Positions 20,341-56,530 of a DNA stretch of 64,000 nucleotides are shown here, piece after piece. Positions within the stretch are counted from its first letter, which is position 1. Every line of letters starts with the position of its first letter. The notes below the pieces were generated by a model that was not told the origin of the DNA, ran no database searches, and worked only from the letters and a program-made list of their open reading frames with translations. The position numbers and the translations under genes were made by a program. Origin of the DNA: Scyliorhinus canicula (taxonomy: Eukaryota); the NCBI RefSeq assembly GCF_902713615.1, contig NC_052162.1, positions 103,133,811-103,197,810 of the forward strand, given 5' to 3'.

Positions 20341-20622
20341 TAGTAGACACCACACAGAAGTAGGTCGCGGTGTCTGTCAGACTCATGGACGAGATAGTCA
20401 GGGTGCTGCTCTTCTCCAAACTTCGACTGACGGCTCTGAATCGACCTTTTTCTTCACCGGTTCTCGACGCCATTATCAACATCTTTGGTCCCTGGTTCGG
20501 AGGCTGAACATACCAGTAAATCGCCGAGAAAACAATGGTGGTGTGGCAGTGTATCAATATGGTTTTCCGTTCACGCGGATTCTGTGACGGAAATGTTTGC
20601 GTAACTTTTTCATCGGTAACAG
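20341..20622 (-). CDS. TCR alpha/delta-like V exon (V1)
   Basis: Acceptor ttgctccattAG, phase 1; VTDEKVTQ...LIHC...IYWYVQPPNQGPKML...GRF...STLTISSMSLTDTATYFCVVST with both conserved Cys and the Trp; abuts a consensus 23-RSS. Confidence 0.92.
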
Positions 20623-20932
20623 CTAATGGAGCAAAGTAATCAATTCCAATTAGTCCAAACAGATATTTGAGAAACATGGGAATAGCTGTATGAATTTCAA
20701 CTCTTCAGATCTACTGCAAATTTAATTACTTCATATTAATTCTAAATCTTAAATCTGTTTGTCCTCTTTCGCTCAATAAGCGGTGATGTAATCATCCTTG
20801 GCTAAAGAACATCGTTAAAATATTCTGAACAAATAATACGAGACATTGATAAAATTACAAAGACGGCCAGGAATTGGCCAGCTGATTTCAATGTCGTGAA
20901 TCTTTGAAGAAGTAAAGGAGGTCAGATATTAC

Positions 20933-28757: not shown

Positions 28758-31700
28758 GCTTCAGGAGAGATAGAGGGGGATGTAAAAGGGGTGGGGGAGT
28801 AGCATTACTGGTTAATGAGAATATTATAGCTGTACTGTGGCAGGACACCTCGCAGGTCTCATACAGTGAGGCAATATGGGTAGAACTCAGGAACAGGAAG
28901 GAAGCAATCACAATGTTGGGGGTCTATTACACCACCCCCCCCCCCCCGCCCCTCAACTGCCAGCGAAAGATAGAGGAGCAGATAGGTAGAGAAATTTTTG
29001 ATAGGTGCAAAAGTAACAGAGTTGTTGTGGTAGGAGGTTTTAATGGGACTCACTTAGTGCTCGGGCCTTGGATGGAGCAGAGTTTGTAAGATGTATCCAG
29101 GAAGGCTTCTTGATGCAATATATAGATAGCACAACTAGGGATAGGGCAGTACTGGGCCTGATATTGGGGAATGAGCCTGGACAGGTGGTTGAGGTTTCAG
29201 TAGGGGAACACTTTGGGCGTAGTGACCACAATTCCATAAGTTTTAGGGTACTTTTGGATAGGGGTGAAGTTAACCCTCACATTAAGGTGTTAAACTGGGG
29301 AAAGGCAACTTATGATAACATCAGACAGGAATTTAAAAATTTGGATTGGGTGTGGTTGTTGGAGGGTAAACCAACATCGGACATATGGGGGTCTTTCAAG
29401 CGACAGTTGATTAGGATTCAGAAGGATTCAGGAGAGAATGAAGGATAAGTATGGGAAGTTTAGGGAGCCATGGATAAAGCGAGTGATTGTGAACCTCATC
29501 AAAAGAGAAAAAGGAAGCTTTTGAGTATTTATGAAAAAATGAAAATCGCTTATTGTCACGAGTAGGCTTCAATGAAGTTACTGTGAAAAGCCCCTAGTCG
29601 CCACATTCCGGCACCTGTCCAGGGAGGCTGGTACAGGAATCGAACCATGCTACTGGCCTGCTTTAAAAGCCAGCGATTTAGCTTTGTGAGCTAAACCAGC
29701 CCCTAAATGAAAATCGCTTATTGTCATGAGTAGTCTTCAATGAAGTTACTGTGAAAAGCCCCTAGTCGCCACATTCTGGCGCCTGTCCAGGGAGGCTGGT
29801 ACGGGAATCGAACCGTGCTGCTGGCCTGCTTTAAAAGCCAGCAATTTAGCTCAGTGAGCTAAACCAGCCCCTTTTTATTGCAAAAGGACTGGAGTATAAA
29901 AGTAGAGAAGTGCTTTTGCAATTGTATAGGCCGTTGGTGAGACCACATTTGGAGTATTATGTCCAGTTTTGGTCACCTTAGTTGAGAAAAGACATGGTGG
30001 CATTGGAAGCAGTTCAGAGGAGATTCACCAGATTGATTCCGGGGAGGGGGTGGGTGGGTGGGGGGTCAGGAGGTGAGTGGGTGGGTGGGGGGGGTGGGGG
30101 GGGGGGGTCAGGAGGTGAGTTACTCACTGTCCGATTCTCCAATATTGACTGGGACTCACTGAGTGCTGGGGGCTTAGATGGGGCAGAGTTTGTAAGGAGC
30201 ATCCAGGAGGGCTTCTTAAAACAAGATGTAGATAGTCCAACTAGGGAAGAGACTCTCCTGGACCTGTTATTGGGGAATGAGCCCAGCCAGGTGGTAGAAG
30301 TTTCAATAGTGGAGCATTTTGGGAACAGTGACCACAATTCAGTAAGTTTAAGTGTTGGTGGACAAGGATACAAGTGGACCTTGGGTGAATGTGCTAATTT
30401 GGGGTAAGGCTAATTATAACAATATTGCATGGGAACTGCAGAACCTAGATTGGGGGCGGATGTTTGAGGGTAAATTAACATCTGACATGTAGGATGCTTT
30501 CAAATGTCAGTTGAAAGGAATTCAGGACCGACATGTTCCTGTGCAGAAGAAGGATAAATATGGCAAATTTTGAGAACCTTGGATAACAAAAGATATTGCA
30601 GGTCTCGTCAGGGCTGGGAACAGACAAAGCCTGTGTGGAATATAAGGAAAGTAGGAAGGAACTTAAGCAAGAAGTCAGGGGGGTCACGAAAAGTCATTGG
30701 CAAACAGGGTTAAAGAAAATCCCACGGCTTTTTACATGTACATAAAAAGCAAGTGAGTAGCCAGGGAAAGGGTTGGCCCAATGAAAGACAGGGGAGGGAA
30801 TCTATGTGTCGAGCCAGAGGAAATGGGCGAGGTACTAAATGAATACTTTGCATCAGTATTCACCAAAGAGAAGGAATTGGTGCATGTTGAGTCTGGAGAA
30901 GTGTGTGCAGATAGCCTGGGTCACATTGAGATCCAGAAAGACGGGGTGTTGTGCATCTTGAAAAATATTAAGGTGGATAAGTACCCAGGACCTGATGGGA
31001 TCTACCCTAGAATACAAAAGGAAGCAAGAGAGGAAATTGCTGAGGCCTTAAAATAAATCTTTGGATCCTCACTGTCTTCAGGTGATTTCCCAGAGGACTG
31101 GAGAATAGCCAGTGTTATTCCTTTGTTTAAGAAGGGTAGCAAGGATAATTCAGGGAACTACAGGCCAGTGAGCCTTATGTCAGTGGTAGGGAAATTACTG
31201 GAGAGAATTCTTCGAGACAGGATCTACTCCCATTTCGAAGCAAGTGGACGTATTAGCAAGATACAGCACGGTTTTGGGAAGGGGAGGTCGTGTCTCACTA
31301 ACTTGAGAGAGTTTTTCGAGGAGGTCACAAAGATAGTTGATACAGGTAGGGCAGGGGATGTTGTCTGTATGGACTTCAGTGAGGCCTTTCACAAGGTCCC
31401 TCATGGCAGACTGGTACAAAACGTGAAGTCACATGGGATCAGGGGTGAGCTGGCAAGATGGATACAGAACTGGCTAGGTCATAGAAGGCAGAGAGTAGCA
31501 ATGGAAGGGTGCTTTTCTGATTGGAGGGCTGTGACTAGTGGTGTTCCGCAGGGATCAGTGCTGGGACCTTTGCTGTTCGTAGTATATATAAATGATTTTG
31601 GAGGAAAATGTAACTGGTCTGATTAGTAAGTTTGCGGACGACACAAAGGTTGGTGGAATTTCGGATAGCGATTAGAACTGTCAGAGGATACAGCAGGATT

Positions 31701-32980: not shown

Positions 32981-33019
32981 AGTTTTTGTACAAGCGTGCA
33001 GTCACTCTGGAACGTGGTG
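32981..33019 (-). promoter_or_regulatory. 23-RSS of V2 (non-canonical heptamer)
   Basis: Nonamer ACAAAAACT at 32989-32981; a 23-bp spacer places the heptamer at CACCACG (33019-33013). Confidence 0.8.
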
Positions 33020-33327
33020 CTTCATAGCCGCGCAATAATACACGGCTGAGTCCGAAAGCTGGGTGTCTGTGATGTTCAAAGGTATGTTTGTGTTCATTCT
33101 GTCCTGTTCGGCAGAAAAGCGCTTTGCAAATGTCGGTGCGTTCTCTTCAATCCCAGCAGTGTGGCTGAGCAGCACATACTGAAGGCCCTGTCCCGAGTAC
33201 TGTACATACCAGAATAGGTAAGCAGCTGTGTATGTGGCAGGGTAGATACAGGGCAACACCACAGAATCCCCCTCACTCGCTACTACGGTTGGGAGATTTT
33301 GGAAAAGTTCCTCCTGCTGGCTCCGCG
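33020..33327 (-). CDS. TCR alpha/delta-like V exon (V2)
   Basis: Acceptor tttttttccAG, phase 1; RSQQEELFQNLPTVVASEGDSVVLPC...YLFWYVQYSGQGLQYVL...RFSAE...LNITDTQLSDSAVYYCAAMK, open throughout. Confidence 0.93.
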
Positions 33328-33349
33328 CTGGAAAAAAAGCAACAGAACG

Positions 33350-34052: not shown

Positions 34053-34092
34053 TCGCTTGGAGAATTATGAAGAAAAATATCTTTGCTGACAT
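34053..34092 (-). CDS. Leader exon of V2
   Basis: ATG TCA GCA AAG ATA TTT TTC TTC ATA ATT CTC CAA GCG A|GTGGGT (MSAKIFFFIILQA); 40 nt, phase 1, in frame with the V2 exon. Confidence 0.75.
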
Positions 34093-34183
34093 TTTTCTGG
34101 TTCAGCAGACAAGGTGATAATCAGGAGGCACGTTTGTGCTGAAGTCTGTGCCAGGATTCGACACTGTACGGAAATGAGCGCTG

Positions 34184-34878
34184 CGCATGCAATCCATTTG
34201 TTACAACCTATTACCACCTATGTGCATGCAATCCATTTGTTACAGCCTATTACCACCTATGCGCATGCAATCCATTTGTTACAGCCTATTACCACCTATG
34301 CGCATGCAATCCATTTGTTACAGCCTATTACCACCTATGCGCATGCAATCCATTTGTTACAGCCTATTACCACCTATGCGCATGCAATCCATTTGTTACA
34401 GCCTATTACCACCTATGCGCATGCAATCCATTTGTTACAGCCTATTACCACCTATGCGCATGCAATCCATTTGCTGCAGCCTATTACCACCTATGCGCAT
34501 GCAATCCATTTGCTGCAGCCTATTACCACCTATGCGCATGCAATCCATTTGTTGCAGCCTATTACCACGTTTGCGCATGCAATCCATTTGTTGCAGCCTA
34601 TTACCACGTTTGCGCATGCAATCCATTTGTTGCAGCCTATTACCACGTTTGCGCATGCAATCCATTTGTTGCAGCTTATTACCACGTTTGCGCATGCAAT
34701 CCATTTGTTACAGCCCATTACCGTTGCACTTTCAATCCATTTGTTACAGCCTATTACCGCGTTTGCGTATGCAATCCATTTGTTGCAGCCTATTACCACC
34801 TTTGCGCATGCAATCCATTTGTTACAGCCTATTACCACGTTTGCGCATGCAATCCATTTGTTACAGCCCATTACCGCG
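34184..34878. repeat. 39-bp minisatellite, ~18 copies
   Basis: Unit GCGCATGCAATCCATTTGTTACAGCCTATTACCACCTAT; the repeat ORFs here (AHAIHLLQPITTY etc.) are by-products. Confidence 0.95.
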
Positions 34879-35063
34879 TTAAGAAGTCTTACACCACCAG
34901 GTTAAAGTCCAACAGGTTTGTTTCAAACACCAGCTTTCCGAGCACTGCTCTATAGGAAGGAGCAGTGCTCCGAAAGCTAGTGTTTAAAACAAACCTGTTG
35001 GACCTGGTGTTGTAAGACTTCTTACTGTGCTCACTCCAGTCCAACGCCGGCATCTCCACATCA
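34879..35063. repeat. Head-to-head Penelope-type ends forming a palindrome
   Basis: Same family as 32417-32600. Confidence 0.8.
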
Positions 35064-37379
35064 TATTACCACGTTGACAGCATGAGCATGAATCCGAGAT
35101 TGACAGCCAACATCGAAATTGCGATTGTCAACCTCCTCTTTGTGATGAGTCCCAGCATCCGATTAGTGCATTGCTGACAGGGGCGGGGCAAAAATACAGT
35201 GAGCGAAAGAAAGAAATCAAAGGTTACGATATTACGATTCCTGACCACACCCAACAGTGACTAACATACTGGACCGAAACCCCAATATTTTATTTTATTG
35301 AAGACTATGTGGAAAGAATACTTAACTTCAGGAGCGATTTCACGAAGAAATGGGGAGTTGATATTTTAAAACAAAACTTTATTGTTAGCACAGTATTACA
35401 ACCTTGAACATGACAGCCGAAAGTAGCTTACAATTACCCCTTGAACAACACTACTCAATAAAGTAAATCTAATACCCTTAATCTCCATATTGCCGATTAA
35501 GCAAAAAAAAAACACTCAATTCCTCCTACATCCCAATGGGACAGAGTAATACTTGCTTTACGGAACAGATTTCATTCCTGTTAGAACCCGCAGACTCTGG
35601 CTGGATATCTTCAAGAAGCTATTTCAACTGGTTTGTTTCTGCTTGCCCTTTGTCCGCAGGCAAGTCTGCCATGTATTAAATACTATTAATATTTATTTAA
35701 ATTTTCCTACTGTGAAATCAATCTCCCTTACTTATGTTAGCCAGATCAGAACCCAACTTAAAAATGCTTTCCCAAAATCTCTGAAAGCCTTAGCTCCACC
35801 CGTCTCCCCAAGCACCATCCCCCCAAACTGAAAGCCAACTGAATCCCAATGCAGAAAACGCATGAAATTCACAGTGATTACCCCTAGTCGAACAACATTG
35901 CATTGATCCAGGCTTTTACGATGGTGAATTTACCACTGTCTCCGATAAGCTTTCTGGTCTATCAAAACAAGATTGGAAAAAAATAACTACTGCAGTCAAA
36001 CACACTTGAGCCCAGGTTTTTAGCCTTTAGATTGCCAAATGTTTATAATCTAACATCTTGCATTTGGCACAGATAAAGACAAGTGAACACTCATATTTAA
36101 CAAACCGGGGTGGGTCAATTCAATACTTTGCATGAAAGGTTAGAAATTTACTAATAATACTCTACATACTCCAAACCCATGACCACTACCATCTAGAAGG
36201 ACAAGAGCAGCAGATATCTGGGAGCCCCACCACCTGGAGGCTCCCCTCTGCACAAACAATGTTCTTCTATGTTGGTATGGATCAGTTGCTGGCTGAAACA
36301 GGAACAGAAACGTGAACATCAATTCAGATATTTATCGACATTATTTCAGTCTTTGGATACAATGTCAGCTTACGGGTGATCTAAGTTCAAGGGTGTGATG
36401 TTATGCAGTCAGTTCATGCACTCGATGATTTCGGAACCAGATCTAGGATCATCTCCACCAGACACCCCATTGTTTTAGTTAGTCTGCCCCGCACAGCAGA
36501 ACACATACTGGGTATTGATTTTATGAATGCCCACAGCCTGTCGTTCGATCCAGTCAATCAGTGTGTCTGGAGAATGGCAAAATCGGACAGAGCACCCGCA
36601 ACTCTCACAGTGGGAGAGTATGCAAACAGGATTAGCGCAGTAGGCGACTATTGTTTCGACCCGACCACGCTTAGTACGGACAAACAGGTTAGGGCAGTTT
36701 TGAACAGACACAGGACAGCATTTGCCAGTCACCAGCACGACTGCGGCAGAATGACTGGACAAGTTCAAGTTACTGGACCTGACCCGAGACCACAGAGACA
36801 GTACCGATTTCCCCTAGAAGCAGAGGGAGAAATTGGAAAAGTTATAGAGAGCTTATTAGAGCAGGGTGTACTTAGGACAGTAGCCTCAACTAATAATGCA
36901 CCTATTTGGCCAGTGAGGAAGCCCGACGGATCATGACCATTGATTATCGGGAACTCAACAAAGTAACCCCAGCAGTAGCCCCCACGGTAGCAACAAGTCC
37001 CAAGACCATGCTCAAGCAGGGACTCCACTCCAAATATTTCACGGTATTGGACATTAGCAATGGCTTCTGGTCAATCCCATTGGCAAAAGCGTGCAGTACA
37101 AATTTGCCTTCACATTTAAAGGACAGCAAGGATTCCACAATTCACCCTCCATTTTCCACTGACAGCTGGCAAATGGATTAGCAACATTTTCCCGACCCGA
37201 ATGTCTGGTACAGTATGTGGACGACCTATTACTGCAGACAGACACCAAGGCAGAGCACATCACGCTTCTGTCCGAACTCCTGGAAATTTTACAAGACATT
37301 GGATGTAAAGTTAACCCCAGAAAGGCCCAAATATTAGAGAATCAAATTATGTATTTGGGTACAGTCATCACGCACGGCA

Positions 37380-39432
37380 GGGTCGGGTGCTTTTTGGCGC
37401 CGCCATTTTAGCCCCGATCTTTTGGCGCCATTGTTTTGGCGCTAGTTGTTATGGTGCTCATTTTTTTGGCCCACCACGGTTTGGCGCCAAAATTAAAATT
37501 TAAGCATGTAAATAAATGGAAACTAGGATTTAAGATGAATTAGCTTGTGATACCAATCAATTATCCCTAACAACAGCGGGATTCTCCGTTTCATAGAATG
37601 TTGATAGTCTGCTAGGGTCCTGGAATGAAATTAAACTAGGATAAAAAACAAACCCTTTATTCGGGATAAAAAAACGAAACCTTTATTCTGGACAAAAATA
37701 CGAAATCTTTATTCTTGATAAAAATACTAAACCTTTATTCTGGCATAAAATATTTATGTAAAAGATATAATTAAAACTCAGTAATTTAATATATTTCGTA
37801 ATTGTGGGCTATACCATGCAAATATTCTAGTGGTTCTCTCTCATCAAACTGGCGCACAATATTCAAAATGCGCTCGTCAGCTCTCACATACTTAAGAAGT
37901 TTTTGTTTTGGAGCATGGCCAGCAACCAATTGTTCATAACATGCATCTCAGTTGTTTTGAATTTTTCTCAGTCCATCAATGAATTTCCATATAATTGGGT
38001 GGTGAACTCCTAATTCCGCATATACCTTTCTATGTGCTGCTTCTGCGTGATTGTTAGTTCGGTCCTCTCCGTTGATTGTGCGATTGTACTGGTTCCACAT
38101 CTCTGAAGGAAAAAGAGGGGGCCGCCTGCCATTGCCTCTTCTCATTGGTCATCCTACGTAATTATCTTCAAACCAGTTAAGCAGCAATTGAAGTTCTACC
38201 GGCAAGTCTTCGGACAGGGTATCTATGTAGTTATCCAAGTGAGGAACAGGCACGAAACATAAGGCTATGATCATTTTAGCTCTTAAAGCAAATTCGGAAT
38301 CACTGTTATATAAAACCTGGCACCCAATCTGTTTAAGGTGCTTGTACACATTATGAGCGAAATGGAAGAAACTCCTGGAAAACATTCTTCCATTGCAGAA
38401 ATAGCTGCCTGTTCAAAGTCACAAGAAATTCTTCCCGGATTTAATCCTGGGATTGCGTCATGAACCATCTGAAACATGCGTACATATGTTGCACGCCTTT
38501 TATTTGGTAATAAGGCATATAAAACTGGATGAACTCCTCCATGCCTTCTTCCCATAATTACATAAACCTGTGTAAATAACGGAGGAGATAATTTAAAGGT
38601 CCCATCAACATACCACACTTCAGAATCTAATAGAAACACAGTCCAGCTCTGTCTCCCAAAAATTAAAATTCTATCATCTTCATGACCACTGTCTGCTATT
38701 AAAAAGTTCTCACGTTCACCATTGTTCTTCATATAATGTTGTAATCATCAGGGATCACTAATTCACGAACATGAACAGGATTTGGAGGAACGAGGTTCAT
38801 TTGATTTCTTCTTCTCCTTACAATTTGCTTCATTGCGTCTGCAGTTGGAAGTACTCCTTGAGCGGCTTGAGAAATATTTTCCGTACAAGAACTTAAAATT
38901 GCCGATGGTTGATCTTGACTCTCTCCAGCCCGGCGCTTTACACTTGTTTTAACTACAGCTACTTCCACGCTTGCTGCTGAAGCACCATGAGAATGCTCAT
39001 TTATTTCCTTTATCACTTCATTGTTTTTAGTGTGTATACGGGCTTTGCACTCGTTCTTGTTTTCACATCTCCAAAACTTCATCAAAGTGTCCTTCTTGCT
39101 ATGCTTGTCGAACACATATAGATATCCATTGTGAGAAAATTTAGGTTTGTCTTTCTTACTTAAAATACTTTCAGCCATTTCTACTACTTTTAAATTTTTA
39201 CAGTGAAATTCTAAGACTATGTTGCGCTACAGAACTAGGTGGAATTCTGGTGGAACTAGGTACAGAACTACATTTAAAATGTTGGTTTTAAAAGTGGGTA
39301 ATTAAGTAGGTAATTAAGATTCGGCGCCAAATCGTTGAATGCCAAAACAATCAGCGCCAAAACAATTCAGCGCCAATAAAACAGCGCCAAAAGATCGGCG
39401 CCAAAATGGCGGGGCCAAATGGTACCATTCCC
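37380..39432 (-). mobile_element. MULE/MuDR-type DNA transposon inserted in RT of element A
   Basis: Imperfect TIRs (GGG...TTTGGCGCCGCCATTT / AAATGGCGGGGCCAAA...CCC), many TTTGGCGCC subterminal repeats; the host frame ITHG|KREIE is interrupted. Confidence 0.85.
37786..39178 (-). pseudogene. FLYWCH-MULE transposase, frameshifted
   Basis: GYLY...FWRCENKNECKARIH (FLYWCH); YVDGTF, LYALLPNK, ISCDFE, FFHF, RTNNHAEAAH. Confidence 0.88.
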
Positions 39433-41774
39433 AGGCAAACGCGAGATCGAGTTCAAAAGAATTGAATCGATTGTCAAATTTCCCCTTCCCCAGAATGTTT
39501 CAGCCCTCCGGTCGTTTTTAGGACTGGTTGGGTACTGTCAGAACCATATCGACGGTTTTGCGAAAAAGGCAGCCCCACTCTCAGACCTCCTTAAGAAAGG
39601 AGCCCCTTGGGAATGGCTTACGCAGCATACAGAGGCTGTGGAAGAGTTAAAGAAGGCCCTTAGCGCAGCACCCGCGCTACAAGTTCCAGACCAACTCTCC
39701 CCCTACGCAATAGAGGTAGCTAGCACCGATCTGACCCTCTCGGCCGTGCTCCTTCAGGAACGGCACGAGCAGCTACGACCAGTGGCTTATGCCTCCAGAC
39801 TTTTAGACCCCGTAGAACAAGGATTTTCAGCCTGCGAGAGGCACCTACTAGCAGTTTTTTGGGCAGTTCAGTACTTCTCGTACATTACCGGACTCAATCC
39901 CATCACCATTTTGACCGAGCACACCCCCACACAGTTACTTTTAGACGGTCGACTGAAGGACGGTTCAGTGAGCCAGATAACAGCAGCTAGGTGGACACTA
40001 CTGTTACAAGGACGGGACATAACAGTTAAATGGACCAAAACACACACATTTTTAGCGGACAACCTACAATATCCAGGACAACCCCATGAATGCGAGATAG
40101 TAGCACCCCTACACAACACAGGACCCTTCATTGCCAAAACGCCCCCCAGGAAGATAGGGAATTCAAGCCAGAGCCCCCAGGACACAGACACGTGTGCCCC
40201 ACTAAAGATATATGTGGACGGTTCATCCACAGTTTTAGATGGCGAACGCATCACAGGATGCGGGATTTATGTTGAGGATGCGCAGGGTCGCGCACTAGAA
40301 GAGATCGCATTAAAATTACCAGGTCACTTAGGCACGCAGGCAGCAGAGCTCACGGCAATTGCTTATATAGTGGACCACCCAGATTCGTTCCCCAGCCCAG
40401 GGGACATATATTCGGACAGTTTATATGTCTGTAACAGTTTAACAGACTTTCTACCCCTGTGGAGGACATGAGGTTTTGTCACCGCAGACGGGAAGCCCCT
40501 TCCATCAGCCCCATTACTCCGCCATATCCTAGAGAAGGCAAAGGATAGGACATATGGCATCATCAAAGTTAGAAGTCACCATAGGTCATCCCCCCCGGAA
40601 ATGTAAAAGCCGACGCACTGGCTAAAGCAGGTTTCAGGCGAGGTCACTTTTGGACACCCCCAGCTAGCTCACCAGCTAGCGCCCCTGTGAGTGCAGTTCA
40701 GGTCTCACAGACAGAAATCGAAGATTTAGTACAGGCACAGAAGCAGGCGAAAATCTCCAGGAGATTTTTAAAGGAAACTTCGTGGCCCAGTACGATAAAT
40801 TCAAACACGCTTTGACCACACATGAGGGTGTGATCATAAAAGATAAATTGTATGTGGTTCCTGAACAGGACAGGAATCAAATGATTGCCTTATTCCATGA
40901 CGGCCATGGACACCAAGGGATTGACCCTACTACAACACACCTAAGACAACTCTGTTGGTGGCCCAACTTAAGACAAGATGTCACCCACTACATAGAGAAT
41001 TGTTTGATTTGTGCGCAGAATAACCCGGAGAGGTATTCGAAGAAGGCACAACTCAGCCACACTCGCCCCGTTAATGGCCCCTGGACAAACCTCCAGATCG
41101 ATTTTATAGGACCATTGCCCCCTTGCAGGAATGGCTATAAATATGTTCTGGTGGTCATAGATACCTTTACCAAATGGGTAGAGGCATTCCCTTCATGCAC
41201 CAACACAGCTAAGACAGCTGCAAAGATCCTGACCCACCACATCTTTACGAGATGGTGTCTCCCCAGAAGTATAGAGTCAGATCAGGGATCTCACTTTACA
41301 GGACGGGTCATGAAGAACGTCCTGACCATATTCGGAATAAAACAGAATTTTCACATTGCGTATCACCCCCAATCAAGCGGGATAGTAGAACGCATGAATC
41401 GGACCCTAAAATCGACCCTTAGGAAGATGGTACAGGAGAACAATTCGACTTGGGATTCAGTGCTCCCATTCGCTCTAATGTTCATTAGGAATACGGTTTC
41501 ATCATCTACAGGTTTCACCCCTCACACACTCATGATCGGACGCCCTATGAAAGGATCAGAATTCCTTTTAGGACTAGACATGACCAGCCCAGAAGTGACA
41601 GCCCTCACACACGAGAAAGCAGTCAAAGGATTAGTTGAGACTGTAAGGTCTGCACAGTTAGCAGCCGCAGTAAAATTGGGAAAAAGACGGAAACAGAGCA
41701 TGGCCTGTTTCAACAAGAATGTACACCCCACAGAATTTCAGGTTGGGCAACAGGTTATGCTATCTGTTTATAAC

Positions 41775-42454
41775 CAGCGCCGGCTCGAGGGTTGCTGGCG
41801 CCCCGGGCAAGCTGAACTTCGGCGCCCTTAGGGGGGGGGGGGGGCGAGGGGGGGGGGGCCGAGGGGGGGCGGGGTCGAGGGGGGGGCGAGGCCGGGGGGG
41901 GCGAGGCCGGGGGGGCGAGGCCGGGGGGGGGCGAGGCCGGGGGGGGGCGTGGCCGGGGGGGGCAAGGCCGGGGGGGGCGAGGCTGAGGGGCGGGGCCGAG
42001 GGGAGGGGCGGGGCCGGGGAGGGGGGGGCGAGGCCGAGGAGGGGCGGGGGGCGAGGCCGAGGAGGGGCGGGGGGGCGAGGCCGAGGGGCGGGGGGGCGAG
42101 GCCAAGGAGGGGCGGGGGGGCGGACCCGAAGGGGGGCGGACCCGAGGTCGGGGCGGGGGGGCGGACCCGAGAGGGGGGCGGACACGCGGGGGGGCGGACG
42201 CGGGGGGTGGACCCGAAGGGTGGGCGGACCCGAGGGCGGGGCGGTGGGCGGACCCGAGGGCGGGGCGGGGGGCGGACCCGAGGGGGGGCGGGGGGGACTG
42301 AGCGGGGGGGCCGCCCTGGGGGCGGGCAGCCACCGCGCATGCGCTGGTTGGCACCGGCCCAACTGCGCATGCGCGGGACCCGAGTCTCTGGCGCCCCCGA
42401 GCACATGGCGCCCCGGGCGACTGCCCGAGTTGCCGGTGCCTTGAGCCGGCCCTG
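41775..42454. mobile_element. Non-autonomous hAT (MITE-like), extremely G-rich, inserted in IN of element A
   Basis: TIRs CAGCGCCGGCTCGAGG / CCTTGAGCCGGCCCTG; 8-bp TSD TTTATAAC at 41767-41774 and 42455-42462. Confidence 0.88.
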
Positions 42455-43985
42455 TTTATAACCCCAGCACGTTTTTGGCTCCTAAATTTTCCGGCCCGTA
42501 CTCAATTTCGGACAAAATCAGCCCCTCAGTATACAGAATAAAATACCCAAACGGTAAGACTCCGTGGTTTCATATTAACCAGCTAAAGGTTATGGAACAC
42601 AGTCAAACCACACACACCATGTCCTGCTGGATGCAGCAGAACACCTCGCTCCGCCCACAAGAGACACATTTCCACCCTCCCCCTCACAGACCAGTTCCTC
42701 ATCGGACTCGACCTCGACTCCGCCCACTTACTCCAGACCATGCCCCGGAACGCCCACAAGCTGCCACAGCAGAGACAGTGACAGTGACTGTGAGACTGAG
42801 GACAGCCACAGCACTCCACCCTACAGCCCCCACTTCAGCGGCTACGACCCCGACTCCAGTGACCCCATGGAGATCACCTACATTAAAAATCCAGACCCAC
42901 ACCTACACCCACCACTGACGACCCCGACAACGCTCCTTCAATTTTAGACCCCACGATTTGGCACAGGGACAATTCTTGGCGACTTGTCCGCAATGACGAG
43001 AGTGACCCCCGGTCACACAATGCAACAATTGCATGCCTGATCCATACAAGGGTATGGGATCCGGGAGAAGAGGATGACTTGATGTCTGACTCCCGACACG
43101 GCAACCCCTTTGCGACCCTGTTCGCAGAGAATGAAGAGAAGTGAGGTGTCCAGATGATGTAAAAAGAGGAACCGCTTGGGAGAAGCGCTGTCCTTTCTGA
43201 TGGCACCTGCACGTATGTTGTTTGTATGTTTGTTAAATGTTTCATTTGGAGATTGGCCACTTACTTTTCAGCTGAAAAGCTTGTGACCACCTCACATGCA
43301 CGTTAGTTTGTCCGCAGATATTTCTGAGAACTTGACACATCTGAAATGTCTGGAGCCCAGCTCAACTTATCACAAGGAGCATCTTGACTCCTCCCCTTTC
43401 TGTTTTTAGGTGCCCGTCTATTCTGGGAATAGAGGCTGCAATTCCACTACGACTACATTCTTGCCCGTTCATTTCAGGTTGCTCAGGCAGTGGAGAAACG
43501 GCATTGAGGACCCTCCCTGTCTGAGGACCCCCCTTTGGTCAGCTAAGCTCGGGTACAGCACAGCACGCCCTACCCGGGGATCCCATACCCGTCGTGGCCC
43601 ATACGCAACTCATTCGACCTTTTCGTTTCTAAACGTTGGTTTCATTTTTGTTTAAGGTAGCCCTTCGGCCGCCACTCCATATGCTATTTACATCCAAGAA
43701 CATTTTGGGATGGTAAATTTCAACACTCTGCGAGACGGCTCGCACTGGTTTAAGATAAGTATATGTCTGGTCCTAAATCCGTTTTTGGAAAAAAAAATGA
43801 GGGAGTCATATGGAGGTGACCACCATAAAGGGAAAATTGGAACAAGAGGACAGATATACTTAAAGTCAAGATATTAAGCTGAATACTAACAGATAATATG
43901 CTTGATCCCCTTAGCTTTCGGACGTTCAGGAAAGGAACTGAGGCAACAACACAGCAAGATCCCAGAAGAGAAGAGAAGGGAAGAG

Positions 43986-44342
43986 ATGAAGAGCACTCGA
44001 ATTGCTATGGTTTTAGCTATTGTGCCATCTGTGTGGTTGCGTGTGGACGCGTGCCCCCTTTCCCACAGTACAACGTTTGCTAACTTCTCCCAAACCCAGA
44101 CCACCCCCAGCCCAGTCAATGGTAACAGTACCCCGACCTGGTGTACCAAATTTCTGACATGGTACTCCTTGTCATATGTAATAGAATCACTTTTGGTGAT
44201 TGCAGTCCTATGTATCATAGTCCAGACCCTCAGGATGAGGAAATGGAGAAGGAGAGCCCACCGCTCGCAGGCCTCAACAGTGTACAGAGTACAATCCCCC
44301 ATTTTCGGATTCCACCAATCCCCCCAACGCCTTGATGTGTAA
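43986..44342 (+). CDS. Putative 118-aa type-I membrane glycoprotein in the env position of element A
   Basis: MKSTRIAMVLAIVPSVWLRVDA (signal-like); S/T-rich ectodomain with NFS and NST sequons and 2 Cys; TM YVIESLLVIAVLCIIVQTL; polybasic RMRKWRRRAHR; uninterrupted frame. Confidence 0.6.
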   Translation: MKSTRIAMVLAIVPSVWLRVDACPLSHSTTFANFSQTQTTPSPVNGNSTPTWCTKFLTWYSLSYVIESLLVIAVLCIIVQTLRMRKWRRRAHRSQASTVYRVQSPIFGFHQSPQRLDV

Positions 44343-44701: not shown

Positions 44702-44711
44702 AAGGAGGGAG
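44702..44711 (+). promoter_or_regulatory. Polypurine tract of element A
   Basis: AAGGAGGGAG immediately before TGTAG. Confidence 0.8.
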
Positions 44712-45505
44712 TGTAGCCACCGAAGTTGGCCATTTCCCTAAATACAAAATGGAGGAACGCAAAGCATACAGGATAAAATGGACAATGTTTGCAGCCCCAG
44801 CAGGCTGCACCTAGCAGGTGTGGATTCTGTCTGCTAAGAAAGCAAACAGCACCGAAACGAACGTTCCGCATACTAATGAGGCAATCACCGGGATAATTAG
44901 CATGTTAATGGAACAATTCCAGATACAATGGACACAAATGGGGAAGCAACTGCAACATTGTAAAGGATACCAGACACTCAGGCACCAACAGGGTTCGAGA
45001 ACAAAGAGCCTGAGAGCCCGCCCAGTAGCTAAGGAACAGCCTCAGTATTGGGGGGATTCAAACATATCGATTGGGAAGAGACCCAATCGATTCCAAGCAG
45101 GTAAGGGAGTCCGCCCAAAGGGGTGCGGATCCCTGGGACCTATAAAAGACAGGTCCCACACATGGTTCAGTCTTCTCGTCCAGCCCTCCTCTTTCTTTGA
45201 CCAGCACTCCTCCGTGGACCAGCACCTCGACCAGCTTTTGCCAAGAAGACCCTGAAGGAGAGAGAGAGAGGTTCGGACAGCAGCCGCCAGCAAGTAAGTG
45301 TCTCACAACGATCGCTACCAGAGATAGACACTCCTGACCCCTTTTAACTTATACCAACCTGAAGTCTGCAGACCAGAGCAGAGCAAGAGGCCTTGTTCCC
45401 TGATCCGGCAGTTCCTTCGAGATAAGTATTAGTTTATTTAGTGGTAGGAATAGCTTAATCCTTTTAGTGTGTGCATGGGTAGTTATTATAATTGTATTAT
45501 AATAA
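44712..45505 (+). repeat. 3' LTR of element A (3'-truncated)
   Basis: Starts TG after the PPT; TATAAAA at 45141; breaks off at AATAA ~45505; loosely similar to the LTR at 56551-56825. Confidence 0.75.
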
Positions 45506-45518
45506 CCGGTGACGCCAT

Positions 45519-48500
45519 TGTAACGATTATTACTTATGTTTTACTTTTGATCAAATTCCTAACCGAGTTGTATTCATGTTATCTTGATCCTATAATGTAT
45601 AAGAATCGCCTTCTTTTCCTGTAATATCGCAGACTTGGGACGGACTCAGCAGTTGTAATTGACTGCTTTCCGACTCCAAGTATCAGCTATTTTCTGCTAG
45701 CAGTTCTAATTAGTGAATAAAGTTCAGTTTTGCTTATCTAATGAATGCTGTTTGAATTTCTCTATCACAGTCAAGACGTGGGGAAAATATAAAATACAAC
45801 ATTTGGCGCTGCGAGAAAAAATCCAATATCCTGAGTGAGCTTCCATGAGGGACTGAGAAAAAGTGATCAAAGCCATGACCGGAGTAAAGAGACGGACGCC
45901 GGCACAAGGTAAGATTGACCTTGGTCTCTCTCTCTCTCGGATCTGTGCTGCGACCCCTCATCCCTGACGGAAGTAACTAAACAGGTGACGGTTCTCGAAT
46001 CTAAATTTGACTGTGAGTACATTTTTTTGGTGTAATTAGCAGCAGGTCAGGGACCTTGTTGATCTCGTTTTTCATCCGCATCAGATTTATACAGGCTGTC
46101 AATAAATTTGGGTCAGGGACCCTTTGATTAAGTTTGGGGTCAGGGACCCTGTCAATATTTTTTTCGGGTCAGGGACCCTGTCAGTAATTTTTTGGGGTCA
46201 GGGACCCTGTCAATATTTTTTTGGGTCAGGGACCCTGTCAGTAATTTTTTGGGGTCAAGGACCCTCCAATTTGATTTGGTACCAGAAATTTTGTTTTGAG
46301 CGTTTTTTTTGCCTGGGCACATTTTACTGACATTATGCGACAAACTTTAGATAAAACTAGCGGCAACTCCCCTCTATTTTTCATGTGTTTTTCAACCCCT
46401 TCCCAAGAACGTAATATTCGAAGATTGGCTGCAGCGCTGCTTTAAACAATAAATTAGGTAACAATATCTGGCCACTAGGTTACACAGGGATCTTGGAACT
46501 TTGACAATAGCATTGATGCAGAAAAAAAAAGCAATCTGGAGAAAAAAAAAGGCCGGTTTCAAATTGTTTAATTTTACAGTGGAAAAAAACAGTCTGCTTA
46601 ACGCAACGAACAATCACTATTAATGAGTTGGAGAGATAAAGCCCGCAAAAGAGATATTAATGAGTGTGTGAACGGTAAATTGAAAGATTGAAGACTTTAA
46701 AATTGTAATGTGACCTTTGGTATGGAAAACAGTCAAAATGATAAAGAGCAATCTGGCAATAACAAACGTCCTGTTAGCAGAAAAGTAGGACTGGCCAATA
46801 AGATTATAGGAAAGAAGGATCCTCCCAGTTGCTCTGGCATGCCGATGTTCCCCTATTCAAGCGATACGGGACAAGGAGGATTTGAACCCTGGACCCACCC
46901 TCATTTTGCGCTCCCCGATCTTGCAATTCCACTGTCCTAAGTCCTGACTCCCACTTCTGATCCCATTACCAATGAAACTTCTGCTAACGTATCCCCCATA
47001 GCGACACGCACTCGGTCACAGACGCAAGCCTTAAATATCGAACAACCCTTCTCTACGGAAAACATGATAATTGACTAAAAGATGTTGATTAAACGATCCA
47101 CAATAAGGGAATTATAGAAGTGAAGTTAATAAGTTACCAATTTAGAAGCATGCTGGCAATAATGACTAAAGTTTAACATTGCTTTTGAATGAAATTTAGT
47201 AGATCAGATGATGTTAACTAACTACTGCTTGGAATGTTGTACTGGCCTTATTATGATAACAAGTGGTTCTTCTGAAGGACAACAAAATGCGTACTCGAAT
47301 TGTTGTTAAACTAATGGCAAAACATTCATAATTCCTCTTGCAAATGTTCCCAAAGTTGTTCAGTTCACACTATATCAGTTTAAAAGAAAGTAACTTTAAG
47401 AATAAGAGTAATTGAAATATGAATAAGTTTTTAGATTGCGTCAAAAGACGTAAATGGCATCACACCAAGTTCTCCACCCATTAGATTCTGCAGGAAACAT
47501 TAACCATTTCAGCAGACAGTTGGTCTTTTCTGAATTGACAAAAGAAATACATCTCAGAGAACAGCTAATACCTCTAAGATTAATCAGTGCAAATTGACTT
47601 AAATGGAATAACACAGATAAAGTTTTCGAAGGAGAATGAAAATTTTTGTTCAAAAATTTGTCCGCAAGGACAAGGGCTGAATCCAAGAGAGAGAAAGAGA
47701 GACAGAGGAAGAGATTGAAGGAGAGAGAGAGAGCCAGCGACAAGAGACAGGAACTGTTAGAGAGAGCGAGAGAGAGCGAGTCAGGGAGAGGCAGAGACGG
47801 AGAGGTAGGCAGATAAAGAGAAAGAGCAACAAGAGTTCCAAAGACAGACAGAGTTATGTAGAGAGGGAGAGAGATAGATAAGAGAGAGAGGGAAAGAATT
47901 CATATTTCATTTTTCAGACTTTGACTTTAAAAATTGTTTCAAGCTGTGATTATTTGAAAGAGGTAAAGAGATATCGATGCCAACATGGTCCTTGTTATTA
48001 CCTGACCAATATCCAAAGTTCTGTGAACTCTTTTGTAAAGCAGTCAGACAATTGATAGCTACTGTCAACCTATTTAATTTTTGCAGAATTGACAGGTCTT
48101 GAAAACGGAATGCGCATATGGAAAAGAACCAAGTTAGGCTATCCACCTTGATTAGAAAGTTGCTGATTAGACACTGCAAATTCGGAGCGGTAATACAGTG
48201 CATTGATAATGGTATGTTTATAGAACTGTCTCAAATACGAGGTCACCAGCTGCAAGATTTAATAACTTCTGTGCCTGCGCCTGATTGCTCTCTGTTCTAT
48301 GCTGGCAGCTAACGTTAACCCTGAGTACCACTGTTTAAAACACCTGATAGAGTCCAGATGAGAGAATATAGTGACCCAAGCCTTGATAACCGCATTACTA
48401 TATCACCTATCCCGCAGGCCCAGCTTCGAAACTTTCCCCTATTCACTACTCCACAGTGGTGGTCGATTGATTTTGACCCCTCACACTTTTCACCTCCCTT

Positions 48501-48583: not shown

Positions 48584-50652
48584 GTACCTCCCCTCTGTCC
48601 AACATCTGCTTCAAACTTGCGATGTCTATCCCTAACCTTTTTTCATTGACACGTTTTGTACAGTGCACATTATCCGATAGGGATTTATTGTCAATGCAAC
48701 ATTCAATAGGTATATTTCCCAAATCCCCTTATCCCAAAATTTCTGTCAATATCTGAGATATATAAAAGGCCATATCCACTGCCTCTACATCTCAGCAGCC
48801 GAAGTGCTTTTGACCACTCTCCTTGTTTTCTTTGTTTCCCACACAAGAGGGCAACATTTACCATTGTTCCCCAAAAGGAAAATTATAAAACCTCCTGCGC
48901 TTGAAACCCCATCACATAAATTTGCATAGGACGCATCACTATAAACTATGAGTTTCATTTGCCTAAGGTCACCTAAAACCGGGAACCTAAAAACACACTC
49001 CTGCATTTTTAGTTTGACCAACGCTTTATTTGCTCTTATTATGTCTTCCACTTTGGGATCATTCATTTTTGTACTCAACTCTAAGACATCAAAACTCACA
49101 TCCGGTCTAGTCTGTCTATCTAACCAATTCAGTTGCCCAATTAAACTTTGTGGTTGCTCTTTTTCCATCCTTGAAACCATTGCGTCTTTTTGTGAAACCC
49201 GGCCACGACTAATTGCTACTGGGCTGATGCTTTCCAAATAAGATTGCTGACATAAAGTTGCCCCTAACTTAGTCTGTCCGATTTCGAGTCCAATATATTT
49301 AAATGCACCGGAAGCCTGACTTCCAACCTTGAATTCTTTCCTCAAACCAGAGATTACAATAGCTTCAAAATCACTAGTCCCACCCCACACAAAATCATCG
49401 GCATGCATCACAAAGATGCCAGAAATATTTCCTTTATAGTGCCAGTAAAACATTGCGGATCTGCTTTCAACTGGCAACAGCCTAACTTTAACAAAACTGA
49501 CCTTACCGAAAAGTACCAGACTCTAGATGCATCATTCAATCCATATACACATTTGTTCAACTTGCAAAGTACCCCTTCTGTGCTAGCTGCCTCTTTCGGA
49601 GGACGGAGAAAAATGTCTCTTTGGAGCTGATGCCCCTGCAAAAAGGCAGCTTTTATATCTATAGATGTGCATTCCTTTCCCTTTGTGGCTAATAGAGCCA
49701 AGAAGATCTTTAAGACCTTTCCTGCCGTAGGTGAATTTACCCTGAAATCCTGATCTTTACCCTGAAATCCTGATCTTGCCTTATAAGTTCCATCCGGAAG
49801 AAGCTTTTCCGTACAAATCCATGTGTGGGATAGAGCTCTTTGTCCCCTATCCGGTACTCCCGTGTATACCCCAAATTCACTCCAACTATGCAGTTCTTGC
49901 TGTTTGGCATCTTTGATAACCTTTTCATCTAATTTATTGGAAGCCACCAAAATTCACGTGCATGTGGGCTTCTACTCCTATTAGTATTCGTAGTCTTACT
50001 CATGTTCCGAGATCTTGATAAACTACGTCCCCTCTCCCACCTGGTATCTCATTCTGTACTGCTACTGCTTGATCTTTCCCTTCTGCTGTGCGATGTCCTT
50101 TCAATAGTTCTCGACGTTTTCCTGCGGACCTGTTCACTATCCGATGTACTATCTGAACTGGCATTGCGTTTTTGTGCCCTCCATTTTAGAACTTCGTTTT
50201 CCTAATCCATTGTCTTGACTCTCTCCCCTGAATGCTGTACATTCAACCAATGTTTATACTTTCCAGTGGACTTCCCTGCTCGACTAATAACAGTTGCATC
50301 CTTCCATTAACTAGACCCTTCAAGCAAGTATGTCACTTTTGTACCAAATTTTGGCATTCGCCCTTTTGGAAAAATGGCCTGTTCTAATTCATCAGAAGTG
50401 TTGTGTTCCTCTACAGAAACCCTGTCTACATCAGTTAACTGGTCCTCATAGTTCTGCAACACGCGCATACCAGATGACTCTGGTTCCTCGTCATGTCTGT
50501 CTGCTCTGTCTAAATTTGAAAATTTGTAATCTCTACTCATTAACCTTGATGAATGTACCCTAACAGTTTGATTACCATGTTGCAAAATAATTGTTTTGCC
50601 ATCTATGCCTATGATCTTCCCTGGGCCTTTCCATTCATTAGAATAGTCATTA

Positions 50653-54059: not shown

Positions 54060-56120
54060 TCAATCGGTGCCATTTATGGCCAAATTGTCTGCATAGGCGC
54101 TAACGCTGTGGAGAGGTCTGGTAATGTTCCTAGGTGGGGCATTTGTGGGCTGGTTTCTTTGATGTTTCCGGGGGGGCTTGGCATTCTCGTGCGTAATGTC
54201 CCTTCTGTCCACAATTGTAGCATTCCTGCGCTTTAGGGTGCTGTGTGTTATTTCTACCTTCATTTACCCATGCGGGTCTTGGTGTGCCCTTACTGGATTC
54301 ATGTTGGCGTCTACTTTTTCTCTCTTTTTCAGGAGGGATTGTTCCCAAGCTCTAGATAGTCACTTCAGTAGCCACACTTCATAGTGTGCCGGGTTTGAGG
54401 GGTCGTAATTCGCACATGCCTTTTGTCCTGCCTCTATGGCATGGGAGACTAAAGTACAGGTCCATTTGGCCGTGTTGTCTGCAGATAAATGGGCGCGTGT
54501 TAAATCACCGAATACTGCGGTGAAGTGGATCCAGAGGCGTCCAGCAAATGCTGTTGGATGCCCTCCATTTTTCTGTCTGCATCGGTTGAGTCCTTCTACT
54601 GGATCTCCTCTTTTGCAGCTAATTGCATCTAACATGGCTGTTTTCATACCTTGGAGGCTACTTCCTCCTACATTATGTGGGTCAGGAAGGGCTGAACTAA
54701 CCAATGGGTCAATGCACATTACTATGAGTTTTACTTCTTCCTGCTCGTCCAGACCGCACACGATGGTCTCTTGCCTAACTCGCTCAAAAAAGTGGTGTGG
54801 GTCTGATGTGGGGTGAAAGGTTTCAATTTTATCGTGGGCATCCCTTAACTGGGTGATGGTTAGTGGGGTGGTGTACACAAAATCGGGTTGGTCTTCTGTT
54901 GGGACTCTTTCGGGGCAGCATGGTAGCACAAGTGGATAGCACTGTGGCTTCACAGCGCCAGGGTCCCAGGTTCGATTCCCCACTGAGCCACTGTCTGTGA
55001 GGAGTCTGCACGTTCTCCCTGTGTCTGCGTGGGTTTCCTCCAGGTTCTCTGGTTTCCTCCCACAGTCCAAAGACGTGCAGGTTAGGTGGATTGGCCATGA
55101 TAAATTGCCCTTAGTGACCAAAAAGGTTCGGAGGGGTTATTGGGTTACGGGGATAGGGAGGAAGTGAGGGTTTAATTGGGTCGGTGCAGACTCGATGGGC
55201 CGAATGGCCTCCTTCTGCACTGTATGTTCTATGTTCTACGCTGCAAAGTGACTGGATTCATAGGGTTGGGTGCTGCCTGTGCAATTGGTGGTGCGGGTGC
55301 TTTCCTTTTCGGGGCCTTTGAGGCTCTATTCTGACTTTCTGTTTCATTCACATATCAATGGGCCGTTTCATTAAGTTCCTGCCAATCGGGGCCATCTTCC
55401 TGATCTAACTGTGGGCCAAAGGTATCTCTGAACCCATTCTGAACTGAGAGCAGTGATTGCAATCTTGCAATTTGCTGCCTGCACTTGGCATGGTCTACCG
55501 AACTCTGCCTCTGTTCCGTGATGGAACTGTGGAGTGCTCATAGGGCCGCCTTTAAGTCCTCGCATTGTTTTTTTCAATTGTTCTGCTTGATGTTCTCTTT
55601 CCTCTCTTAACAAAACCGCACGTTGCGTGTATTGGTAGGCCTTATCATATTGAATCTGAAAGCTACTTAGGTGAGCGAGACAAGATTGGTGTGCTCGTTT
55701 AACATCAGCCATCTCCTTGTCCTTCGCCACTAGCTGCTCTCGGAGTTGCTTATTTACTCTCTCACACTCGCTAACACTTCCCTCACTACTCCTCTCTTTC
55801 TCTTCAAGCTGTCTACGGAGCATCCTCACGACCTCCTCTGTGCCTCGCAATTGTGCCAGACAGGACACGATTGTCATCAGCTTACAAACTGTACTTAAAT
55901 TCTTCTTGTGGATCTCGGTCAGGTTATCCCACCAAGTTTGTCCTGTACTACCAGGACCTGTTTCCTCATTCGCACAAAACTCAGACCATAGGGACCATGG
56001 TTTCCCCTTTAGGTACTTCCTAATTTCCTCTTCCCATATGGGACACTGTTCTGCTCTGTTGGTCGCTGCGACCTTGGGTTCTTGTGGGTGCATAAGGCGT
56101 TCCATTGGCTTCATTGCCAT
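54060..56120 (-). pseudogene. gag of element B (frameshifted, SINE-interrupted)
   Basis: ORFs 55371-56120, 54360-54912 and 54060-54263; CCHC zinc knuckle. Confidence 0.8.
54912..55238 (+). mobile_element. HE1-like SINE within gag of element B
   Basis: SINE head, core and tail. Confidence 0.88.
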
Positions 56121-56530
56121 CTCTACGATTATCTCTGTTTCTTTACCGGGAATTTGGGACAGGGGGGAATAAAGCGGTGATGCAAACAGCGGGTACGGCG
56201 TAAGCTATTTTCCGGTTTACGCAACTCCCAAAAGTTTCACGCAACAAAATCCATCGAGGTTACCTTATATCCCTTGTTAGTACACATGCAAATTACACAC
56301 TTCTGAATCATGGAGGTTTGATCAATACTGGTCTTACGCTTGTGGTTTCTTTTACTTTTCCAATTTGGATTTCTAATTCAAACGTTTTGTGGGTTCTCTC
56401 GGAGTGACACAGTCACTTCTGGGTCGAGTCCCATCAGATGTCGCCAATTACTGTTGCCTTTTTTACCTGCTATAAATATGGCAATCAATAAGGTTGCCGT
56501 TCTTCCTTTAGATATCGATATTATATTGCT

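Follow-up and report, generated by a model that had tools for sequence, protein, structure and literature searches.

Among retroelements devoid of an envelope gene, the closest described counterparts of the locus considered here are found in insects, where env-less elements use a small protein, sORF2, for soma-to-germline transfer (available text of bioRxiv 2025.03.14.642691). In the available portion of that preprint, sORF2 was located downstream of pol in 7/22 lepidopteran cases, and the underlying screen was conducted on arthropod elements plus NCBI viruses, the word 'shark' occurring 0 times in the portion concerned (bioRxiv 10.1101/2025.03.14.642691). A further point of reference is provided by the reovirus FAST proteins, which operate without a cleavable signal peptide, the TM serving as reverse signal anchor: in the available sections of the relevant account, p14 is both unglycosylated and myristoylated, and the addition of a glycan site rendered it non-fusogenic (PMC3979892).

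With respect to the retroviruses themselves, foamy virus Gag carries no membrane signal and budding requires Env (PMC7828637, available part), while the accessible text on lokiretroviruses reports them from amphibians and coelacanth and not from cartilaginous fishes (PMC7947760). One element from the small-spotted catshark is already on record, the spuma-like ERV-Spuma.0-Sca, given in the accessible part of its description as 9,220 nt in length with an LTR of ~870 nt (PMC10699275).

The present analysis concerned a 64,000-nt stretch of genomic DNA from that species, Scyliorhinus canicula, hereafter the window, from which a prior sequence-only reading had proposed that a shark LTR lineage carries a small non-Env membrane glycoprotein at the position of env. 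Evidence of selection, together with the occupation of that slot in five families, bore this proposal out, and the small gene family is real, selected and apparently undescribed.

The open reading frame and its carrier copy

Translation of the window yielded an uninterrupted frame of 118 residues at 43986–44342(+), assigned as a small membrane glycoprotein gene from its env position, the selection acting on it and the helices predicted by AlphaFold. It starts 841 nt past the pol stop (43142–43144) and ends 359 nt ahead of a polypurine tract (PPT; 44702–44711(+)) that was identical or near-identical in 16/22 natural copies examined, an arrangement between integrase and PPT/3' LTR, beside a ruined pol, that agrees with the original description. 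The broken pol (36446–43144(+)) covers the last part of protease, followed by RT, the tether, RNase H, integrase, its SH3 and an acidic C-terminal tail, and is disrupted by stops, frameshifts and two insertions: a MULE-like DNA transposon at 37380–39433(-), recognised by its TIRs and a FLYWCH domain (E 2.5e-13), and a GC-rich non-autonomous element of unassigned strand in integrase at 41775–42454, flanked by the 8-bp target duplication TTTATAAC. The integrase tail extends for ~180 acidic, Ser/Pro-rich residues beyond SH3 (42600–43144), and conservation of its last block (43043 onward) reaches as far as the most distant family.

The window copy is devoid of gag and a 5' LTR, and its alignment to other copies begins at 36446, inside protease. 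The 3' LTR (44712–45505(+)), which contains a TATA at ~45142 and, at 45294, the donor GTAAGT, is truncated to ~790 of ~950 nt and ends abruptly at 45505, where it is interrupted by a different LTR-like sequence ending ...ACA at 45801. A PBS-like TGGCGCTGCGAG comes after 45801 and 29-bp leader repeats lie at 46103–46265; the region from 45506 to ~48800 is probably a second, decayed ERV.

Elsewhere in the window, the segment at 54063–56456(-) contains a leader and a broken gag (50–65% identical) that belong to a diverged element of this lineage; neither the window nor the 10 kb beyond it gave a pol or small-gene match. The segment at 48785–50205(-) contains Copia-like RT fragments, identified by their motif. 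An Ig V-set segment resembling a T-cell receptor V gene (33005–33346(-), Pfam E 1.9e-15) and a second, weaker Ig-like segment (20354–20635(-)) were also recorded, and an antigen-receptor locus may be where the element resides. A tandem array with a 39-bp unit was present at 34065–34990, and at 29622–29870 a 168-bp duplication contained two tRNA-like (SINE-like) copies.

Copy number and organisation of the element family

Five protein searches of the catshark genome (G000) were conducted, the queries being the ORF of the window copy and four of its relatives among the RefSeq models of S. canicula and S. torazame. Each scored the best 150 of 4,485–5,650 candidates for the small gene, and the identity bands among these best 150 matches per query resolved at least five families (A–E) that carry it. 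From these data we infer at least about 600 distinct copies in the genome, and hundreds to thousands overall. The 118-codon ORF is a family gene, with a chance frame ruled out, and its presence in at least five families disposes of the idea of an insertion unique to the window copy.

Natural copies of ten kb consist of an LTR of ~950 nt, gag, pol, the small gene, PPT and LTR. Their primer site corresponds to tRNA-Arg(TCT), the SnRV primer also being tRNA-Arg. Gag is a protein of 581 aa with a coiled coil and one CCHC, and Gly2 was missing from 22/22 natural Gag N-termini shown; gag and pol occupy one frame separated by TGA, found at 28/29 aligned junctions (40 loci), and pol runs from protease through RT, tether and RNase H to integrase and SH3. 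The small gene occupies the same env slot in all five families, mostly 1.3–1.6 kb from SH3 in the 45/54 ten-kb loci with both landmarks. An Env-sized frame was absent from the intervening spacer in these 45 loci, where the longest ATG frame from integrase SH3 to the ORF was ≤179 aa, the remaining 9/54 having been left out of the scan as being without an SH3 match; the assertion that the element has no SU/TM Env was to that extent confirmed.

Family A LTR pairs were 90.6–99.5% identical (median 96.3, 16 pairs), and 16/143 lineage-like pol matches in the genome sit in frames of 1,404–1,411 codons. The lineage has been recently active, as judged by those pol frames and by LTR pairs up to 99.5% identical. 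Between families A and B, dS varied by gene (RT 0.19, gag 0.28, IN 0.35, small gene 0.80), an unevenness within one family pair that suggests recombination and module swapping.

Selection on the small gene

Comparison of 110 unique family-A copies showed that variants seen once (45 synonymous, 163 non-synonymous) gave w 1.36, and that those present in at least 10 copies (18 synonymous, 12 non-synonymous) gave w 0.25 (p 1.7e-4); no stop codon was common to 10 or more of these copies. The other plus frames of the ORF returned w 1.2 and 4.7 and, at a threshold of three copies, the ORF gave w 0.45 against 0.71–1.59 in nine flank frames. One antisense frame, which has its third positions in common with the ORF, mirrored the signal at w 0.35. 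The ORF contained 1 frameshifting indel present in at least four copies, at codon 112, and three equal flanks contained 23, 18 and 11, a result at odds with disruption of the frame at neutral rates in other copies.

Between families, pairwise comparison of the small gene gave dS 0.8–1.4 and dN/dS 0.20–0.37, falling to 0.10–0.30 for residues 52–111, as compared with 0.14–0.26 for gag, 0.11–0.32 for RT and 0.06–0.12 for integrase. The ectodomain (w 0.43–0.55) was under purifying, not diversifying, selection, and the most constrained portion was the TM and tail (w 0.12–0.21 for residues 52–93), changes shared in the TM amounting to 16 synonymous versus 6 non-synonymous. Protein similarity was the basis on which many copies had been chosen, and such a choice leans toward intact frames; despite that bias, singletons were neutral, and the between-family signal was based on large dS. 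The dN/dS analysis proposed in the sequence-only reading has accordingly returned purifying selection, both for shared variants and between families, which acts on the small gene at the family level with a strength about equal to that on gag and RT.

Since differences confined to one copy are neutral, selection worked on replicating elements and not on the window copy. The open frame in the latter is unremarkable, since 10/30 copies selected by non-coding DNA were also open, and its private differences amount to 4 non-synonymous and 0 synonymous; such post-insertion decay points to selection during replication, and domestication is not indicated. In neutral simulations, a 118-codon frame remained stop-free in 138/5000 cases at 0.4 substitutions/site and in 50/5000 at 0.8.

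Predicted structure of the protein

Across the lineage the protein is 114–118 aa in length. Residues 1–22 (43986–44051(+)) form a predicted cleavable signal peptide with small residues at -3/-1, cleavage at that point being presumed from these features. The signal-like N-terminus reported initially was recovered as a prediction in 8/8 copies checked across families, with a hydrophobic core of KD 2.0–3.1, and its hydrophobic character persists while its sequence diverges among families. The ectodomain (44052–44165(+)) comprises an S/T/P-rich stalk with the N33 sequon and an aromatic juxtamembrane helix (W52-C53-F56-W59-Y60). It had been put at ~40 S/T-rich residues, in good accord with the 37 residues from predicted cleavage site to TM in 108/111 copies (35% S/T). 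The two sequons first noted fared differently, N33 being near-invariant (115/116 unbroken copies) and N47 present in only 86/116; of the two bracketing cysteines, Cys53 was retained in 113/116 and Cys23 in 1/116.

A predicted TM helix (44166–44225(+); KD 2.0–2.5) contains conserved Glu67 and Cys76, the single membrane span with a Cys thereby being substantiated (Cys76 in 111/116). Beyond it lie the polybasic juxtamembrane stretch and the conserved tail motif Y100-R101...P105-x-F107-G108 (44232–44339(+)). Of the features singled out earlier, the polybasic stretch is kept and the terminal LDV is variable in the family. Among the 116 unbroken copies W52 was invariant (116/116), Gly2 occurred in 0/116, and W59, Y60, S61, E67, C76, the basic stretch, Y100, R101, P105 and F107 were nearly fixed. 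AlphaFold predicted a helix at 3–21, disorder at 22–51 and a single helix at 52–101 (mean pLDDT 64). The hydrophobic moment of the juxtamembrane helix (0.35–0.58) was barely above that of shuffles (p 0.04–0.28), and that of the endodomain was 0.21–0.47; amphipathicity, a property of ecto- and endodomain helices in the FAST proteins, is marginal here.

Expression signals and a conserved non-coding block

Immediately upstream of the gene, a predicted CTAAC branch point and 3' splice acceptor (43886–43914(+); AG 43913–43914, alternative AG 43891–43892) form a signature kept in families A–C, with a YAG after the upstream ATG in 95/96 copies. The acceptor is followed by a purine-rich, non-coding 5' leader (43915–43985(+)) of variable length and phase, which is likely to be a splicing enhancer, and the ATG at 43986 is preceded by a purine at -3 in 107/108 copies. 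An N-terminally extended protein from the ATG at 43898 was considered and rejected, the phases being unfixed (28/17/14 in A, 1/2/15 in B, 6/7/6 in C).

The LTR donor GTAAG was retained in 30/34 aligned copies, and the 5'-LTR twin of the donor at 45294 would serve splicing. RefSeq model P0122 departs from the genomic frame exactly at the equivalent of the 43914 acceptor, and P0123 appears to be joined at the upstream AG. The conserved acceptor, the LTR donor and these two joints together point to an env-like spliced mRNA. Contigs of four runs guessed to be RNA covered 30/30 bins of one natural copy, a canonical splice being found in 0/15 joints listed, out of 22; no spliced read was observed, and this outcome weighs neither for nor against splicing. 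Models P0122–P0125 fuse host or unrelated exons to the upstream region of the small gene, one of them being a HEPACAM2-like isoform that ends in its TM and tail; host-ERV chimeric transcripts possibly lie behind these models.

A conserved non-coding block at 43457–43615(+), likely to be a cis-acting RNA element, showed 85–99% identity in most 20-nt bins across families A–C and ~70% in family D, and was more conserved across families than the remainder of the pol-to-gene spacer. It returned no Rfam match, and its predicted hairpin had a fold z of +1.07, with double changes in 3/36 predicted pairs, outside both main stems. It is a candidate RNA export, packaging or splicing element.

Lineage of the carrier and its Env-bearing sister

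The carrier element has the LTRs, PBS, PPT, PR-RT-tether-RH-IN order and RT placement that characterise the Retroviridae. Its closest pol relatives, annotated as NYNRIN-like, come from frog, coelacanth, turtle and bird elements, and its RNase H is nearest to that of foamy virus. The C-terminus of one frog pol model (P0002) contains a signal peptide and an Ig-like stretch missing in other frog models, and this is probably a fused gene model.

An RT tree was built with 40 rows selected out of 121 proteins, and in it the element fell in an amphibian-coelacanth group (support 84/96), itself within a clade of gamma/epsilon-type and OVEX1-like rows (100/98) that stands apart from gypsy and a teleost clade, which we take to be lokiretroviruses; the rows included no labelled SnRV, ERV-L or loki sequence and the clade names are inferred. 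Bird rows share the WMGPVR motif of OVEX1. Given the composition of the tree, the cautious designation is 'basal, class III-like retrovirus', and a first classification of the element as a lokiretrovirus was weakened by its failure to group with the teleost clade. A PF00523 search of the genome gave no match anywhere, controls included.

A search with the nearest relative located seven loci of a low-copy sister lineage, with Env-like frames after pol in 3/7. The sister Env has a furin-like RQRR and a heptad/Trp-rich stem/TM end, and gave no Pfam match. First-look candidates numbered 298, against 4,485–5,650 for the small gene, and the 120 matches recorded in the genome were mostly weak and from more distant Env families. 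Profile-profile comparison of the small gene with the sister Env C-terminus gave a probability of 0.64%, with 25/60 architecture-preserving shuffles scoring as high, and non-coding DNA in common with the Env-bearing loci was found in 0/7. The simplest reading of these comparisons is that env was replaced.

Homology searches

A word-based protein search gave no match for the single protein and only P0124 for the family profile. A full HMMER scan returned six matches, of which four were real relatives, all Scyliorhinus models, and two were repeat-rich noise. The best Pfam match, TMEM156, was below cut-off; PDB gave 0 matches, the best BFVD match had E 1.1, ESM Atlas values were under 0.9, and viral contigs contained no relative. 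No homologue outside Scyliorhinus/catsharks was present in the databases searched. The small gene was also undescribed in the literature searched, a body of text that did not extend to subscription journals, Repbase/Dfam notes or bioRxiv supplements.

Functional interpretation

Because the element, devoid of env, has to retain this protein of the secretory pathway to multiply in the germ line, the protein most likely acts during one of the membrane steps of the cycle. Our preferred reading, to which we would attach a rough probability of 0.45, is that the small protein may act as an Env substitute for cell-to-cell transfer, in the manner of insect sORF2 and with a different build. A subgenomic mRNA would be formed by splicing of the LTR donor to the 43914 acceptor; the signal peptide would direct entry to the ER, where N-glycosylation would follow, and the polybasic patch would promote Golgi export. 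The conserved tail could then bind Gag, itself without a Gly2 myristoyl site, and so gather capsids at the membrane, where a short ectodomain of fixed length and the aromatic juxtamembrane helix might allow two membranes to come within reach of limited fusion or pore transfer, capsids being handed directly to neighbouring cells such as germ cells. A more ambitious proposal, in which an unrelated glycosylated fusogen of 96 residues (mature), of a class distinct from both FAST and sORF2, replaced Env, effected soma-to-oocyte transfer of capsids and out-amplified the Env-bearing sister more than tenfold, is less likely than not and should be regarded as tentative. High copy number is equally expected from intracellular env-less retrotransposition, and the protein consequently need not act between cells.

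It is somewhat doubtful that the protein is instead an accessory factor that protects replication, as an antagonist of a membrane restriction factor, an immune modulator, a viroporin or a barrier against superinfecting relatives that bear Env, with no role in transfer. A type I layout such as this one, in which a signal peptide precedes a glycosylated mucin-like stalk, TM and basic tail, is found in many accessory glycoproteins of viruses, the proteins that resemble it weakly (TMIE, glycophorin, TMEM154 and adenovirus E3, none significant) are host or viral proteins of type I, and a polar Glu and a Cys are conserved inside the TM; however, the gene occupies the env slot with env-like splice signals and is the sole third gene of the element. 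Restriction antagonists usually show the diversifying pattern of an arms race, which the purifying selection on this ectodomain (w 0.43–0.55) does not resemble. That the protein is no more than an adaptor for budding or capsid anchoring, its tail docking unmyristoylated Gag to ER/Golgi or plasma membrane for particle assembly and maturation without fusion, seems unlikely: the tightest constraint does lie in TM and tail, and Gag has no Gly2 and has an N-terminal coiled coil, as does foamy Gag in the available part of the source (PMC7828637), but a fixed ectodomain length, an invariant glycan site and the invariant outer W/C/W would be left unexplained, and the greater divergence of the small gene than of gag in some pairs (A-B dS 0.80 vs 0.28) suggests that the small gene moves from one backbone to another.

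Origin as an internally deleted Env, retaining the signal peptide plus membrane-proximal stem, TM and tail, would be compatible with any of these functions and is decidedly improbable. The slot and splice logic are those of env, and the sister Env, whose C-terminal end is made up of a Trp-rich stem, a TM and a basic tail, gives E ~0.01 against the family profile within its locus; set against this are the profile-profile probability of 0.64%, the 25/60 shuffles that did as well, and 7/7 Env-bearing loci without common non-coding DNA. Least credible of all, to the point of being very nearly dismissible, is that the frame stayed open by chance or that the host has domesticated the copy at this locus: the ORF is short and intact beside a ruined pol, but selection operates at the family level, five families keep a frame that was rarely stop-free in neutral simulations, and the window copy, with 4 private non-synonymous and 0 private synonymous changes, gives no indication of domestication, 10/30 flank-picked copies also being open.

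A retrovirus that has lost Env is considered to be restricted to the cell in which it is expressed, and here an env-less lineage has kept a membrane protein of the secretory pathway, constrained like capsid, across dS above 1; a low-copy Env-bearing sister in the same genome offers a natural comparison for envelope loss or replacement. Should capsids be transferred, as the preferred reading as an Env substitute would have it, Env-independent infection, so far a matter of insects, would take in the Retroviridae of vertebrates as well, and fusogens would gain a new minimal architecture; should there be no transfer, a new family of retroviral accessory or budding proteins would be indicated. The small gene would represent a further variant of the strategy whereby a small membrane protein stands in for Env.

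Comparison with known systems

From a retroviral Env, with its furin site, fusion peptide, heptad repeats and several hundred residues, the small gene departs in its size (118 aa), in the lack of any Env-sized frame in 45 loci and in having no detectable homology to the C-terminus of the sister Env. Foamy viruses have a Gag without a zinc knuckle and express pol from a separate spliced mRNA, whereas the catshark element has a CCHC and gag-TGA-pol in frame. As described in the available portions of the relevant papers, the basal class III-like elements (snakehead retrovirus, OVEX1/SpeV, clade Huo) share with it a gag-stop-pol arrangement in one frame and one CCHC knuckle (PMC6001957, PMC2717909, PMC4422223, PMC13517186), as well as the tether plus RNase H, a tRNA-Arg primer site and an RT beside the OVEX1-like clade. 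They differ in possessing, in those same portions, a large Env or Env-like ORF, that of OVEX1 (ORF3) being 873 aa as compared with 114–118 aa here. Lokiretroviruses, in the accessible text, resemble the element in their dual RNase H and a coiled-coil Gag with Ty3-like capsid features (PMC7947760), but its RT lies apart from the presumed loki teleost clade (100/98, with no labelled loki row) and no F-like Env occupies the slot. ERV-Spuma.0-Sca shares the host species and is of similar size, but its layout in the available description differs (gag 1538–3796, pol 3920–6865, and an 'env' at 6989–8314 abutting the LTR; PMC10699275). Motifs of the small-gene lineage were not found in the supplements of that paper, the text of which may be incomplete, and ERV-Spuma.0-Sca is probably another element.

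The FAST proteins (p10, p13, p14, p15), as far as the available accounts extend, are similar in size, single TM, small ectodomain and membrane-proximal polybasic motif, and it was from this architecture that the sequence-only reading had drawn its comparison. Membership of the FAST group was nevertheless rejected: the catshark protein has a separate signal-like N-terminal hydrophobic segment and a near-invariant glycan site, and has neither an N-myristoylation motif (Gly2 0/116) nor an ectodomain cystine loop, there being one conserved Cys and no family-wide pair. No homology to FAST was found in Pfam, PDB or BFVD.

Of the features used in the insect sORF2/FAST-like screen, as given in its available text (60–210 aa, one TM, N-out, ectodomain of 10–50 aa, MGxxxS/T), size and ectodomain fit and MGxxxS/T is absent. 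No sequence link to sORF2 was found, and the catshark system differs from the partially available account of sORF2 in that a vertebrate retrovirus, one with dual RNase H, acts as carrier, and in that its protein combines a predicted signal peptide with a glycan site, is without MGxxxS/T and is likely to be expressed from a spliced env-like mRNA. The sORF2 proteins of the MDG1-group Metaviridae (412, Mdg1, Stalker), as portrayed in the same text, are nonetheless alike in being short single-pass membrane proteins carried by an Env-less LTR element, with N-out/C-in topology, a short ectodomain of constant length and a polybasic patch just past the TM.
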